In this document: in pieces, positions 3,064-59,887 of the stretch
How the letters are laid out: every line of letters begins with the position of its first letter
How positions within the stretch are numbered: the stretch's first letter is position 1
The notes under the pieces: generated by a model
Databases searched by the model: none
Told to the model about the DNA's origin: nothing
Seen by the model: only the letters and a program-made list of their open reading frames with translations
Assembly: GCA_037127815.1 (NCBI GenBank)
Contig: JBAXXP010000002.1
Coordinates: 142,943 to 206,942 of the forward strand
Direction of reading: 5' to 3'
Origin: a bacterium
Lineage (GTDB): Bacteria; Patescibacteriota; Minisyncoccia; Phycocordibacterales; CAIZLB01
Length of the DNA stretch: 64,000 bases
Made by a program: the position numbers and the translations under genes

Positions 3064-4836
3064 ATGCAAAAAGAAATCAAAAATATACATAAAGAACCAT
3101 TTAAGATTAGGTTAAAGAATAAATATTTAAAATGGAAACAAATTGCTTTGACATACAAAAAGACAAGTATCGTCATTGCTATAGTTGTTATCGCATTAGT
3201 ATATTGGCTGATAAAATTAATTTTTCCTACACCAGTTATTACATCGTATGTTGTATCTGATGTTCAAAAAGGCTCAATTATCACGAACGTAACAGGTAGC
3301 GGACAAGTTTCTGCATCAAATCAAATTGACCTTAAGACCAAGGCTTCTGGCGATATATTAAAAGTAAACGTTACAACAGGACAAGAGGTTAAGGCTGCGC
3401 AAATTATTGCACAAATTGATAATCCAAGTGCATATCTTGATTATAGAGCTGCGCAAATTGCATATGAACAATTTGTTCAACCTGCAGATGCTTCAACAAG
3501 AATTCAAGCAGAAAATGATTTAAATAATACTAAGCAAAGTTACAATAAATCAGTAGACAATCTAAATAATGCATACGATACCGGATACAGTTCTGTTGCC
3601 TCAAGTTATCTAGACATGACAGAGGCCGTAACTGGAATGAACGATATACTCTATTCAGGTTCTGGATATTTGAATGATCAAAGTTTGGTAGCACTTTCGT
3701 CACAAACAAAGACTTTTAAAAATAATGCTGGTGTAAATTTTGATAAAGTAAAAAATGACTACAGGACAGCTCTTGAAACTTATAGAGCATCGTCAAGATC
3801 AAATTCAACAAGCTCTATTGAACAATTAATTAAGACAGCGTATGAGATAACAAAAGAAGTTTCAAGTACTCTTAAGGACCTAAAAAATACTGTTGACTAC
3901 ATTAAAAATCAAGATCCAAACAGCACAAACGCATCAAGCAACAGTACAGCAGCCGTAAACGCATCAAACAATCTAATTAATTGGATAGGTAAAATTAACT
4001 CTGATCTATCTAATCTATCAAGCTCAGTTAATAATATTAATGATTTAAAAGATACTATTCAAAATGGTCCACAAACGATTGCACAAAAGCAAGCAAACTT
4101 GGATAAGGTTGTAAATGGTGCAGACAATCTTGATATTGAAGCCCAAAGAATCAATCTTCAACAAAAGCAATTAACCTATCAAAATCTTTTTGTCACAGCC
4201 CCCTTTGATGGAGTTATAGCAAAAATAAGTATTAAGCCATCTGATGCAGTTTCCTCAGGAGCATCTGTTGGAACAATTATCACAAAGAACAAAGTAGCCG
4301 ATATTACTGTAAACGAAGTTGATGCAGCCAAGATTCTTGCTGGACAAAAAGCAACACTTACTTTTGACGCTATTGACGCCTTAAGTATTTCTGGAGTTGT
4401 TCAATCAATTGATTTAGTTGGAACTGTCACACAAGGTGTTGTTAATTACAATGTCAAAATTACTTTTGATGTTCAGGATGACAGAGTCAAATCTGGAATG
4501 AGCGTCAGCGCTTCTATAATTACAAACAATAAACAAGATGTAATTGTCATTCCAAATAGTGCTGTAAAAAGTAAGGGAGGAATAAAATATGTAGAGTTGT
4601 TTAGTTCAAAAGTTGCAACATCAACAACAGCACAAACTGCAAATGAGGTTCCTATACAACAAGCTGTGGAAGTTGGATTATCAAATGATACTCAAACAGA
4701 AATTTTATCAGGTCTAATTGTTGGAGACAGAATTGTTACAAAAACAACAACATCCAGTGCAACTGCCGCTAAGACAACATCAACACCTAGCTTGTTTGGA
4801 GGAGGCGGAGGAACAAGAGCTGCGACAGGACGATAA
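3064..4836 (+). CDS. Efflux periplasmic adaptor, HlyD/MacA membrane-fusion family
   Basis: N-terminal transmembrane helix, a lipoyl-like segment (GQVSASNQIDLKTKASGDILKVNV), a long coiled coil, a beta-barrel motif (VTAPFDGVIAKISIKPSDAV), and a C-terminal Ser/Thr/Gly tail. It is followed by the ABC ATPase and the FtsX-type permease. Confidence 0.8.
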   Translation: MQKEIKNIHKEPFKIRLKNKYLKWKQIALTYKKTSIVIAIVVIALVYWLIKLIFPTPVITSYVVSDVQKGSIITNVTGSGQVSASNQIDLKTKASGDILKVNVTTGQEVKAAQIIAQIDNPSAYLDYRAAQIAYEQFVQPADASTRIQAENDLNNTKQSYNKSVDNLNNAYDTGYSSVASSYLDMTEAVTGMNDILYSGSGYLNDQSLVALSSQTKTFKNNAGVNFDKVKNDYRTALETYRASSRSNSTSSIEQLIKTAYEITKEVSSTLKDLKNTVDYIKNQDPNSTNASSNSTAAVNASNNLINWIGKINSDLSNLSSSVNNINDLKDTIQNGPQTIAQKQANLDKVVNGADNLDIEAQRINLQQKQLTYQNLFVTAPFDGVIAKISIKPSDAVSSGASVGTIITKNKVADITVNEVDAAKILAGQKATLTFDAIDALSISGVVQSIDLVGTVTQGVVNYNVKITFDVQDDRVKSGMSVSASIITNNKQDVIVIPNSAVKSKGGIKYVELFSSKVATSTTAQTANEVPIQQAVEVGLSNDTQTEILSGLIVGDRIVTKTTTSSATAAKTTSTPSLFGGGGGTRAATGR

Positions 4837-5587: not shown

Positions 5588-5619
5588 TTGGGGTCAGGCA
5601 CCATGGTGCCTGACCCCAA
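5588..5619. repeat. Copy 2 of the 32-bp palindromic element (perfect), inside the ABC operon
   Basis: A perfect TTGGGGTCAGGCACCATGGTGCCTGACCCCAA. It sits between the ATPase stop (5583) and the permease ATG (5628). Confidence 0.9.
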
Positions 5620-22130: not shown

Positions 22131-22162
22131 TTGGGGTCAGGCACCATGGTGCCTGACCCCAA
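22131..22162. repeat. Copy 3 of the 32-bp palindromic element (perfect)
   Basis: Lies between the infB stop (22126) and the rbfA ATG (22172). Confidence 0.9.
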
Positions 22163-22171
22163 CAAAAAAAC

Positions 22172-22510
22172 ATGAAATCTAAAGCAATAATAAAACCACA
22201 TAGAGACGAAAGGGCTATTCATATCATTAAAGAATTGGCTATGGAGTTTATGTCACGTGAAGCAAACAGAACATCTCTTGTTACTGTTACTAATGTCATT
22301 CTTGGCGATAGAGCTAAGAAAGCAACAATCCTTCTTAGTGTTTTACCAGAAGATAAAGGCCCAGTTGTTGAAGAATTTGCTAATAGAAAATGTAAGGAGT
22401 TCAGAAGTTATGTAAAAGCTAAGTCAAAGCTAGGTATTATACCCTTCTTTGATTTCAAAATAGACTTTGGTGAATTGAATAGACAGAATATTGACAGGAT
22501 GCTAAAATAG
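22172..22510 (+). CDS. rbfA: Ribosome-binding factor A
   Basis: Conserved infB-rbfA synteny. TSLVTVTNVILGDRAKKATILLSVLP and LGIIPFFDFKID match the RbfA KH-like fold motifs. Confidence 0.7.
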   Translation: MKSKAIIKPHRDERAIHIIKELAMEFMSREANRTSLVTVTNVILGDRAKKATILLSVLPEDKGPVVEEFANRKCKEFRSYVKAKSKLGIIPFFDFKIDFGELNRQNIDRMLK

Positions 22511-22567: not shown

Positions 22568-22640
22568 GGCGTAGTGGCGAAGTGGTTAACGCGGCGATTT
22601 GCAAAATCGTTATGCGCCGGTTCGATCCCGGCCTACGCCT
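22568..22640 (+). tRNA. tRNA-Cys (anticodon GCA)
   Basis: GGCGTAGTGGCGAAGTGGTTAACGCGGCGATTTGCAAAATCGTTATGCGCCGGTTCGATCCCGGCCTACGCCT. Anticodon loop TTGCAAA. A perfect 8-bp hairpin ATGTAAAA-TTTG-TTTTACAT follows at 22642..22663. Confidence 0.85.
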
Positions 22641-22682
22641 CATGTAAAATTTGTTTTACATATTTCCGTACAAAATCTTTAA

Positions 22683-23177
22683 ATGAGAAAAAGAAAATGG
22701 TCAAAAGATCAACTTATCAAGTCAGTTTCCGAATCTACAAGCTATAGGCAGGTTCTGAAAAAACTTGCATTAGTTGAGGCTGGAGGAAATTATACTCAAA
22801 TAAAGAAATATGTTTTGGAATACAATGTTTCGATAGCACATTTTACAGGTAGAGGGTGGAGCAAGGGTAAAAAATTTTCTGATAAGACACCTTTAATTCC
22901 AACTAAAGATATTCTTGTAGTAAACAGCACATTTCAAAGTCACAAACTTAAAAAGCGTTTATTTAAAGAAGGCTTAAAGGAAAAGAAATGTGAGATATGT
23001 GGTTGGAACAAAACAACAGCCGAAGGAAGATTACCTTTAGAACTAGACCATATAAATGGTGATAATATGGACAATAGAATATCTAATTTGCAGATACTTT
23101 GCCCAAATTGTCATAGTTTGCAGCCTACTCATAGAGGATTGAATAAAAATAAAAAAGCTCGGGTGGTGGAATGGTAG
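22683..23177 (+). CDS. HNH endonuclease (free-standing, homing-endonuclease-like)
   Basis: HNH motif CEICGWNK...LELDHINGDNMDNRISNLQILCPNCH. The gene is inserted between tRNA-Cys and tRNA-Leu, and its last 21 nt overlap tRNA-Leu. Confidence 0.75.
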   Translation: MRKRKWSKDQLIKSVSESTSYRQVLKKLALVEAGGNYTQIKKYVLEYNVSIAHFTGRGWSKGKKFSDKTPLIPTKDILVVNSTFQSHKLKKRLFKEGLKEKKCEICGWNKTTAEGRLPLELDHINGDNMDNRISNLQILCPNCHSLQPTHRGLNKNKKARVVEW

Positions 23178-23239
23178 ACACGCGACACTTAAAATGTCGT
23201 AGGCGTAAGCCTGTGTGGGTTCGAGTCCCGCCCCGAGCA
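23157..23239 (+). tRNA. tRNA-Leu (anticodon TAA)
   Basis: GCTCGGGTGGTGGAATGGTAGACACGCGACACTTAAAATGTCGTAGGCGTAAGCCTGTGTGGGTTCGAGTCCCGCCCCGAGCA. Anticodon loop CTTAAAA and a long variable arm. Confidence 0.85.
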
Positions 23240-23457
23240 CAAAGTCGGAAAAAACAAAAATACACATCAATAACCAGATGTGTATTTTTGTTTACATAAC
23301 TTACTTGATTTTGACGCTATTCTACATCATATATTACAGAATGGCTCATATTAGCCTTATTTTTGGTAAAAAACTTGACACATCGTCAAAAATAGATTAC
23401 AAGTAATAAGGACCGAGTACACAACTGTCGGTGCTAAGTGAACCATAAAAAAGACTG

Positions 23458-35143: not shown

Positions 35144-35175
35144 TTGGGGTCAGGCACCATGGTGCCTGACCCCAA
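35144..35175. repeat. Copy 4 of the 32-bp palindromic element (perfect)
   Basis: Lies between two co-directional HlyD-family genes, 16 nt upstream of the 35127 start. Confidence 0.9.
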
Positions 35176-38814: not shown

Positions 38815-38846
38815 TTGGGGTCAGGCACCATGGTGCCTGACCCCAA
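38815..38846. repeat. Copy 5 of the 32-bp palindromic element (perfect)
   Basis: Lies 10 nt after the metK stop and 81 nt upstream of the DoxX start. Confidence 0.9.
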
Positions 38847-39849: not shown

Positions 39850-40006
39850 TAAATTAAAAATTCCTCATAAAGAGGAAAGATAGATGACTAGTCTTATCTT
39901 TCCATAATAATGCTTTCGCACTATCTGGCTGGATTTAGCACCTACTCATTTCTGAGGGTTGCCGATGGGTCGTTGAGCCAGTTGCTCTCGCCATACTCGT
40001 GATACA
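39850..40006 (-). ncRNA. SAM-I (S-box) riboswitch with terminator, in the metK leader
   Basis: Minus-strand sequence GGCGAGAGCAACTGGCTCAACGACCCATCGGCAACCCTCAGAAATGAGTAGGTGCTAAATCCAGCCAG...AAAGCATTATTATGGAAAGATAAG. This aligns with the SAM-I consensus (GAGAGG..GGGACUGGCCCGAUGAAACCCGGCAACC.AGAAAUGGUGCCAAUUCCUGCAG...GAAAGAUGAG). It is followed by a CCTCTTTATGAGG hairpin and a U-run before the metK ATG. Confidence 0.6.
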
Positions 40007-40108
40007 ACTAATTTAGTTGTGGCTACATTGTAGCACTACTCAGTTTGCAATACAATCACGCTCTATTAATTATTTGATTAATGAGCATGATTAGGTTAAA
40101 ATTATCGT

Positions 40109-44637: not shown

Positions 44638-44777
44638 TAAACATAAGGAATTTCCATACTTCAACATTCAAACTCCACTTCCCTTTATATTTATTTAAAA
44701 TGTGGTAGTATTTTAGTACAACTTAATAAAAGAAGTAGCCTAAACCTATGTTGAAATATATAGGCATGGTGAAAAAA

Positions 44778-44882
44778 GTCCTGACAGACATAAAAAACCC
44801 ATCATATGGGGTGTCTGTCAGGCCGTACTGGGAAACTGGTATTGGAGAGCGCAAGCTCTCCACTCATGTGGTGGGCTTTTTG
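44778..44882 (+). ncRNA. Candidate structured small RNA or cis-regulatory leader
   Basis: An 11-bp stem CCTGACAGACA...TGTCTGTCAGG encloses a small hairpin. It is followed by GGAGAGC-GCAA-GCTCTCC (GNRA tetraloop), then CCAC-TCAT-GTGG, then GGGCTTTTTTG. The whole lies 35 nt upstream of the 44917 ATG. Confidence 0.3.
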
Positions 44883-59855: not shown

Positions 59856-59887
59856 TTGGGGTCAGGCACCATGGTGCCTGACCCCAA
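59856..59887. repeat. Copy 6 of the 32-bp palindromic element (perfect)
   Basis: Lies between the ABC gene stop (59895) and the purF start (59835), 20 nt upstream of the purF ATG. Confidence 0.9.

Follow-up and report, generated by a model that had tools for sequence, protein, structure and literature searches.

A probable free-standing HNH homing endonuclease gene between tRNA-Cys and tRNA-Leu(UAA) in a Patescibacteriota genome and its relatives

The stretch of DNA analysed here (the window) comprised 64,000 nucleotides of a bacterium of the Patescibacteriota (GenBank assembly GCA_037127815.1, contig JBAXXP010000002.1, positions 142,943 to 206,942 of the forward strand). It carries a gene for an HNH endonuclease between the genes for tRNA-Cys and tRNA-Leu(UAA). 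This is probably a free-standing homing endonuclease gene of a phage-derived HNH family, copied into the spacer of a tRNA-Cys/tRNA-Leu(UAA) operon at a point a few bases 5' of the tRNA-Leu gene. The cassette is approximately 0.5 kb long and has no stop codon of its own; the open reading frame (ORF) runs into the intact tRNA gene. A preliminary description, made from the letters of the window, had proposed a homing-endonuclease-type insertion that spared the tRNA. This was supported, since related genomes differ in the occupancy of exactly this spacer.

Layout of the locus

The locus comprised the following features. Loci from other genomes, contigs and metagenomes are given as L followed by a number.

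22568-22641, forward strand: tRNA-Cys(GCA), upstream partner of the ancestral cysT-leuZ pair (ARAGORN; Rfam, 63.8 bits)
22642-22661, forward strand: 8-bp hairpin of the native tRNA-Cys trailer/spacer (read from the sequence; fold)
22643-23154, forward strand: segment missing from the empty relative L290, comprising spacer, 5' leader and HNH codons 1-157 (blastn)
ATG 22683 to TAG 23175-23177, forward strand: HNH homing-endonuclease-type ORF, 164 aa (ORF list, Pfam HNH, phrog_10822)
22704-22820, forward strand: N-terminal three-helix module, aa 8-46 (AlphaFold model)
22989-23117, forward strand: HNH beta-beta-alpha-metal core, aa 103-145 (Pfam, alignment)
23157-23240, forward strand: tRNA-Leu(UAA), intact (ARAGORN; Rfam, 57.9 bits)

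The position of the HNH gene between the two tRNA genes, as given in the preliminary description, was confirmed by ARAGORN, Rfam, the ORF list and Pfam. Its 21-nt overlap with tRNA-Leu, with the TAG stop in the D-loop GGTAG, could be read directly from the sequence: the ORF stops at the TAG of the D-loop GGAATGGTAG, and nucleotides 1-21 of tRNA-Leu (23157-23177) double as codons for the last 6 residues, ARVVEW, and the stop. No intron family was found at the locus in an Rfam scan. A check for paralogous HNH copies had also been suggested, and tblastn found none within the 64-kb window. The GC content of the window was 35%. Its IF-2 is approximately 50% identical to IF-2 of named Patescibacteria metagenome-assembled genomes. 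The neighbouring genes are infB and rbfA upstream and a 3D-domain gene downstream.

The hairpin 3' of tRNA-Cys has the sequence ATGTAAAA-TTTG-TTTTACAT. Its 8-bp stem was as previously described, and its end was corrected from 22663 to 22661. When folded in a 27-nt context it gave -4.2 kcal/mol (z -3.5); in a 63-nt context it was indistinguishable from shuffled sequences. L291, an empty allele, and L292 and L294, which are filled, carry a near-identical hairpin (atgtaaaatgatgagttttaca). Because the empty allele has it too, the hairpin is native spacer and was ruled out as part of the cassette. It was also ruled out as a terminator, being a weak AT-only stem with no T-run and not significant at 63 nt.

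Filled and empty alleles in close relatives

Escherichia coli K-12 has the order glyW-cysT-leuZ with 12 nt between cysT and leuZ, and this arrangement argues that adjacency of tRNA-Cys and tRNA-Leu is the old state. The empty site has this same, widespread cysT-leuZ order. Homologs of IF-2 80-86% identical to that of the window shared its aminotransferase-DUF4446-infB-rbfA synteny. No HNH gene was present at the site in the closest relatives, L290, L291 and L293 (IF-2 80-84% identical), in which tRNA-Cys and tRNA-Leu are separated by 10, 28 and 67 nt, respectively. The contig of a fourth IF-2 relative had a gap of just 337 nt at the site. When the window was compared with L290 by blastn, homology ended at 22642 and resumed at 23155. 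The tRNA-Leu 5' sequence of the window was also present in the empty alleles L290, L291 and L293, so that the ORF takes its last seven codons and its stop from the host tRNA gene.

Two filled alleles were compared with L291. L292 differs from it at 5 positions in 4,590 nt (99.9% identity); past the shared spacer, L292 enters the HNH gene and L291 enters the tRNA. L294 is a complete filled allele, 96.7% identical to L291 upstream and 92% downstream. Its insert relative to L291 is 477 nt, which begins 4 nt and ends 3 nt upstream of the tRNA-Leu 5' end. The true insert is approximately 477 nt where the native spacer of the relative is longer, and insert sizes range over 477-512 nt. A comparison of this spacer among related genomes, which the preliminary description had called for, thus gave both presence and absence, even between assemblies 99.9% identical in the flank.

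The tRNA-Leu genes of L294 and L291 were identical at nt 1-26 and in the 3' part from the T-arm, and heavily different at nt 27-57. The anticodon stem is CAACA/TGTTG in L294 and AGAGA/TCTCT in L291, and the variable arm differs too. A 100-nt alignment segment over the diverged tRNA part and the 3' flank was 71% identical between the two. The diverged nt 27-57 of L294 are read as a putative co-conversion tract. The empty outgroup L293 has the AGAGA/TCTCT stem, as does the empty L291, which argues for gain of the cassette rather than its loss by deletion. The gene lies outside any intron or intein, the neighbouring tRNA-Leu is intact, and presence or absence at one fixed site was observed among close relatives. 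These are the marks of a free-standing homing endonuclease gene.

Occupancy of the site across the candidate phyla radiation

A species-level scan with one genome per species gave at least 420 matches, the best 80 of which were analysed. These 80 loci from the candidate phyla radiation (CPR) were found through the HNH protein itself, and came from Saccharibacteria, Paceibacterota, Microgenomates-type and other CPR lineages. The HNH gene was directly upstream of tRNA-Leu(taa) and on the same strand in 80/80 species genomes, at a distance of -162 to +29 nt, and in 50 the ORF and the tRNA overlapped. Several Saccharimonadales metagenome-assembled genomes carry the gene (e.g. L058-L060 and L079). 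L065 seemed to be an exception, because a 35-N masked run (approximately 3508-3542) inside its tRNA-Leu(taa), just past the anticodon loop, hid the tRNA from ARAGORN. The nearest upstream tRNA was tRNA-Cys(gca) in 54 of the 80, and infB was upstream in approximately 35. Many homologs end in RVVEW or RVVEWYTRDT; judged by their sequence, these tails are translated tRNA.

Metagenome loci were sampled with a tRNA-Leu pattern, ACACTTAAAATGTN{14,24}GGGTTCRA, which matches 36 of the 80 CPR loci and none of 80 viral loci. The sample of 120 loci comprised 41 that were filled, 63 that were not filled and 16 that were too short. At 33 of the 63 unfilled loci, flank proteins matched those of filled CPR loci with at least 45% identity over approximately 100 aa or more, and approximately 21 of the 63 had tRNA-Cys 2-70 nt upstream. 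About half of the sampled CPR-type loci carry the cassette. Closely matched pairs were present: RbfA was 91% identical between L247 (empty) and L222 (filled), and flank proteins were 80-95% identical between L271 (empty) and L036 (filled).

The preliminary description had named universal presence at the locus, together with signs of purifying selection and no intron association, as grounds for a housekeeping nuclease. Universal presence seemed to hold for the 80 loci found through the HNH protein. It failed once loci were sampled through the tRNA or infB: the nearest relatives had an empty site, as did 33 CPR-like metagenome loci (41 were filled), which is not the universality of a core gene. 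The argument from universal synteny to a housekeeping role was dropped once loci had been sampled independently of the HNH protein.

The HNH protein

Pfam HNH (PF01844) matched residues 103-145 with E 5.6e-6, above the curated cut-off, and the best family match was phrog_10822, "HNH endonuclease" (E 3.6e-46, residues 1-161). More than 3500 relatives of the protein were present in the database, the top 120 of which were 53-100% identical over the full length, so the ORF is a real gene and not a chance reading frame. Residues C103, C106, C140 and C143, together with H123, N135 and H144, were invariant in 105 aligned relatives. From this alignment, the four cysteines are the predicted zinc ligands and H123, N135 and H144 the predicted catalytic residues. 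The AlphaFold model (mean predicted local distance difference test score, pLDDT, 87) comprises an N-terminal three-helix bundle, a linker and a zinc-bound HNH core; the last seven residues are disordered in it. The Pfam match, the invariant residues and the expected strands and helix in the model assign the protein to the HNH (His-Me finger) nucleases. Its nuclease activity and cut site are predictions. No GIY-YIG domain of the kind found in T4 SegB and the Seg family was detected by Pfam, which gave HNH-type domains only.

The N-terminal module occurs in 2-3 tandem copies in the longer homologs P0012, P0019 and P0094, as expected for a DNA-recognition unit. It gave weak fold matches to small helix-turn-helix domains and is probably a DNA-binding domain, as judged from the model. 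A fold search of the PDB returned generic McrA, Cap5 and HNH matches only (E at least 0.01) and was uninformative on the N-terminal module. In a viral structure library, phage and giant-virus HNH endonucleases matched with E values down to 1e-13.

Phage relatives in tRNA clusters

IMG/VR contained at least 278 full-length relatives, 35-51% identical. Nearly all of the best 80 were within phage tRNA arrays, with up to 20 tRNAs per 6 kb. Approximately 27 of these 80 copies begin 4-170 nt (mostly 40-100) downstream of tRNA-Leu(taa), and approximately 10 are just upstream of it (overlapping to approximately 120 nt off). Two copies, next to other tRNAs, were present on several viral contigs. The HNH protein also matched 270 records of cultured phages. 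In the T5-like Salmonella phage S124, the homolog orf94 lies between tRNA-Ala and tRNA-Leu(TAG) with a 6-nt tRNA overlap, and a second HNH gene overlaps tRNA-Asp. The hegA gene in the T5 tRNA region matches the HNH half only. Full-length homology and tRNA adjacency place the window gene, at the level of sequence, in the phrog_10822 family of phage tRNA-cluster HNH genes. Identity to the query was at least 53% for CPR copies and at most 51% for viral copies, and this suggests that the CPR copies may be a clade apart from the viral ones.

Many phage genes called as tRNA-Leu(taa) were just 74-76 nt long (L088, L092, L104, L111, L112 and other viral loci), which is too short for the long variable arm of a bacterial tRNA-Leu. 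The tRNA-Leu(TAG) of S124 is also 74 nt. A metagenome locus, L288 (3672-4176), has a phage-like order, in which tRNA-Leu(taa) is followed approximately 15 nt downstream by a distant HNH relative (31% identical).

Cassette anatomy in other lineages

In L222, L036 and L074, homology to the empty relative extends through the first 22-27 nt of tRNA-Leu before it is lost. The cassette comes next, with a complete tRNA-Leu behind it. A leftover 5' fragment of tRNA-Leu (nt 1 to 22-26) is therefore retained upstream of the cassette. Of 99 loci, 35 carried the D-arm motif GGTAnAC at -60 to -51 from the ATG, with less than 1 expected. This position-resolved motif count was the remnant count relied on. 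A strict remnant search (9 of 115 only) and a looser regular expression, which gave false positives from the tRNA-Cys D-arm, were discarded. A break near tRNA nt 22-27 is suggested by two boundaries, where the remnant stops and where the divergent tract of L294 sets in.

When loci were aligned at the ATG (n=100), a -35-like element was found near -35 and TAnAAT at -12 to -7. The -35-like element is T-rich in the position counts and reads TTGCAT or TTGACT by eye in single loci. Elements so near the ATG imply that the transcript starts at or near it. The reverse complement of the D-arm motif occupied -30 to -21 at 23 of the 99 loci. The region upstream of the ATG was enriched in inverted repeats (score of at least 8 in 29%, vs 6-7% of controls), and their arms co-vary (GGTAAAC/GTTTACC, GGTACAC/GTGTACC). 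D-arm inverted repeats at -85 to -1 were seen to flank the -35 or -10 box of the cassette itself (L006-L085, L169-L288; for example L032, L040 and L061). They may form a hairpin, or equally a two-part protein-binding site or operator. The window copy has neither the tRNA remnant nor the D-arm inverted repeats.

Other genes were found at the same site. On another CPR contig, L236 (8786-9451), a full LAGLIDADG gene (PF14528, E 3.7e-13) lies between tRNA-Cys and tRNA-Leu(taa). L284 (1340-1584) carries an internally deleted remnant of an L236-type LAGLIDADG gene, and its ORF also stops inside tRNA-Leu. Further HNH-type ORFs precede tRNA-Leu(taa) in L214 and L270. By sequence, the site appears to be common to unrelated homing genes. 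Truncated copies of the HNH gene, with its C-terminal third left, are present in L194 and L261. A homing cycle predicts such a site, shared by unrelated homing genes and filled in some genomes, empty in others and decayed in others again.

L016 and L057 have identical tRNA-Cys genes and HNH proteins 78% identical, with IF-2 just 50% identical. This pattern could reflect block transfer of the tRNA-Cys/HNH region.

Predicted expression of the window gene

Two candidate expression signals were located around the operon.

22480-22508, forward strand: sigma-70-like promoter candidate, TAGACA-17-TAAAAT with TG (consensus scan, 10/12 matches)
23252-23293, forward strand: 17-bp hairpin in a T-rich context after tRNA-Leu (RNA fold)

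The candidate upstream of tRNA-Cys was the sole good promoter match, and tRNA-Cys, the HNH gene and tRNA-Leu are likely transcribed from it as a unit. The hairpin after tRNA-Leu (-20.4 kcal/mol, z -8.3, 0/200 shuffles folding as well) is probably the operon terminator. A Shine-Dalgarno-like motif was found for only 2 of 47 window genes (ORFs of at least 150 aa), and the missing ribosome-binding site before the HNH gene is for that reason normal here. In many window genes an extended -10 box, TGATATAAT, ends 6-8 nt upstream of the start codon, and this suggests that mRNAs in this organism are as a rule leaderless. The HNH gene could also have a weak promoter to itself, TACAAAAT at -14 to -7. 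Were it transcribed together with the tRNAs, a cut by RNase P at 23156/23157 would deprive the message of its stop codon.

Proposed mechanism

In the proposed homing mechanism, the protein would bind the tRNA-Leu(UAA) gene through its N-terminal helical module and nick or cut the empty allele at a position that is probably close to tRNA nt 22-27. With a cassette-bearing copy as the repair template, the cassette and adjacent tRNA sequence would then be carried into the empty allele. Donor DNA could come by uptake into presumably competent cells. The window gene would probably be transcribed from the tRNA operon promoter. RNase P, in processing the tRNA-Leu 5' end, would then cut off the last 7 codons together with the stop and so limit full-length protein, as proposed for T4 segB.

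A broader reading that joins these elements is offered tentatively, as a possibility rather than a likelihood. One HNH cassette family would have persisted for long at tRNA-Leu(UAA) across CPR, cycling between filled and empty states. Its fuller form would be inserted inside the tRNA at approximately nt 22-26 with a replacement 5' portion, repairing the broken gene without an intron. This form would have its own leaderless promoter, flanked by inverted D-arm copies that are possibly a self-regulating operator.

Alternative explanations

Several observations weigh against a mobile homing endonuclease. The L292 contig ends 75 nt into the HNH gene, and its tRNA end was not assembled. The co-conversion argument comes from one well-resolved pair (L294/L291), other pairs being uninformative. 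Filled alleles still hold the full tRNA-Leu target, and the proposed mechanism does not account for the avoidance of self-cleavage. All-against-all blastn of the filled loci gave no near-identical gene in unrelated flanks; gene pairs with 76-79% nucleotide identity and no flank match arise because the proteins are conserved in AT-rich genomes. The remaining points speak equally for a nuclease domesticated for host benefit (e.g. in expression of the tRNA operon, DNA repair or DNA uptake) that shares a transcript with the tRNAs and has lost its mobility. The dN/dS of the HNH gene is 0.06-0.10, as low as that of housekeeping genes, so that purifying selection is strong. Mean HNH identity across CPR is 61%, above the 42% of IF-2, and gene GC follows flank GC (r = 0.85 over 32-60%). 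Close filled pairs are collinear with similar gene and flank identity, which argues that most inheritance is vertical and long-term. From these sequence comparisons, the copies are long-term residents under strong selection for an intact protein. The invariance of all catalytic residues, the presence of the gene in at least 420 species genomes, and an operon promoter and terminator in the window with no convincing promoter of the gene's own also fit domestication.

Domestication as the whole explanation is nevertheless considered unlikely. The gene is missing from the three nearest sequenced relatives of the window and from approximately half of the sampled CPR-type loci, it is polymorphic between assemblies 99.9% identical in the flank, and truncated copies exist. 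An unrelated LAGLIDADG gene occupies the same site elsewhere, and the relatives of the protein are phage homing-type genes. It is possible that domestication is an added layer on top of a homing origin. Mantel correlations between HNH and IF-2 were low (r = 0.07-0.12), those between IF-2 and tRNA-Leu were equally weak, and HNH identities were star-like (SD 4.7%). The Mantel tests (HNH vs IF-2, tRNA-Leu and tRNA-Cys) cannot separate vertical from horizontal descent and were dropped as evidence.

A nuclease of defence or competition, cutting incoming phage DNA at phage tRNA-Leu genes or excluding rival elements, is quite improbable. The best PADLOC match is the 'HEase' (homing endonuclease) model (E 1.5e-19), and PADLOC also matches the HNH domain of ZorE (E 1e-13); phages carry tRNA-Leu(UAA) genes with related nucleases, and in parts of the published record homing endonucleases act in phage competition and immune evasion. 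These database matches, however, cover the generic HNH core only. NCBIfam gave sub-threshold ZorE and IscB HNH matches only, with ZorE at 24 bits vs a cut-off of 600. With infB, rbfA and a 3D-domain gene as its flanks and no partner defence genes nearby, the protein was not assigned to Zorya type II as ZorE. tRNA genes are common integration sites and the family is phage-derived, so that a larger integrated element (a prophage or island with a tRNA attachment site) was considered, as was a spurious ORF. Both are refuted by the alignments of filled and empty alleles and can hardly be credited: the insert is just 477-512 nt, its flanks are collinear housekeeping genes in filled and empty relatives, neither an integrase nor a paralog is present in the 64-kb window, and thousands of full-length homologs exist. 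A free-standing homing endonuclease cassette accordingly remains the preferred explanation.

Other features of the window

Features away from the locus were as follows.

2440-2467, 5590-5617, 22133-22160, 35146-35173, 38817-38844 and 59858-59885: copies of a 28-nt palindrome
39891-40008, reverse strand: SAM riboswitch (RF00162; Rfam, 56.2 bits)
44737-44860, forward strand: LOOT RNA (RF03000; 80.4 bits vs a gathering score of 46.4)

The palindrome, GGGGTCAGGCACCATGGTGCCTGACCCC, is perfect and GC-rich, and is present six times in this 35% GC window with 0 copies expected. At least four copies are just outside ORF ends, and one is between infB and rbfA. It looks like a repeated terminator or REP-like element.

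Comparison with known systems

The closest counterparts of the cassette gene are the phage tRNA-cluster HNH genes (phrog_10822; S124 orf94), which are homologous to it over the full length, with 33-51% identity to phage copies. Like it, they lie between tRNAs, abut or overlap the next tRNA with their 3' end, and have no intron or intein. The cassette is unlike them in its host, a CPR chromosome, and in its one fixed site, tRNA-Leu(UAA) in the cysT-leuZ operon.

Homing endonucleases have been described in the T4 and T5 tRNA clusters, including T5 F-TflI/II/IV (PMC2330249). T4 SegB is free-standing in a tRNA cluster and cuts a tRNA gene of a relative without segB, and flanking tRNAs are co-inherited (PMC2330249). 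For segB, the proposal is that processing of the tRNA severs the stop codon from the last codon of the mRNA and so down-regulates the gene (PMC2330249). The likeness of SegB to the CPR cassette lies in the proposed function. SegB is a GIY-YIG and not an HNH enzyme, with no homology, and it spreads in phage co-infection, whereas bacterial DNA exchange would be required here.

Patescibacteria tRNA group I introns with HNH genes (PMC13011429) share with the cassette the phylum, the tRNA targets and homing genes of HNH type. These introns sit in the anticodon loop and the tRNA is restored by splicing (PMC13011429). With the cassette, in contrast, the tRNA is kept by insertion just upstream or, in other lineages, by a duplicated 5' portion. 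The 2026 survey of Patescibacteria tRNA introns makes no mention of the HNH cassette (PMC13011429).

The inverted D-arm copies that flank the cassette promoter in many CPR relatives could be a target-mimicking operator. I-TevI represses its own expression through an operator that resembles its own homing site. The comparison is an analogy only, limited by the window copy, which is without the repeats, and by the co-varying arms, which fit a hairpin equally.

Significance

No description of the cassette was found in the literature searched, and such absence is no proof of novelty. From the phage HNH genes and SegB, the cassette differs in residing on a bacterial chromosome, in using one site superphylum-wide, and in borrowing its stop codon from the tRNA or regenerating the tRNA 5' part. 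For annotation, it explains a called "HNH endonuclease" that overlaps tRNA-Leu, and tRNA-Leu(UAA) sequences in CPR organisms may be mosaics.

Free-standing homing endonuclease genes are known mainly from phages; here, a family of phage type is found at a single chromosomal site in very many ultra-small bacteria. This provides a natural system in which to study the persistence of a selfish nuclease in cellular genomes. Also at issue are whether CPR episymbionts take up DNA in a way that supports homing, and how repeated invasions are tolerated by, and recorded in, an essential tRNA gene. If the cycling between filled and empty states proposed above is true, each homing event would overwrite part of tRNA-Leu, and the element would drive tRNA-Leu exchange between CPR lineages.

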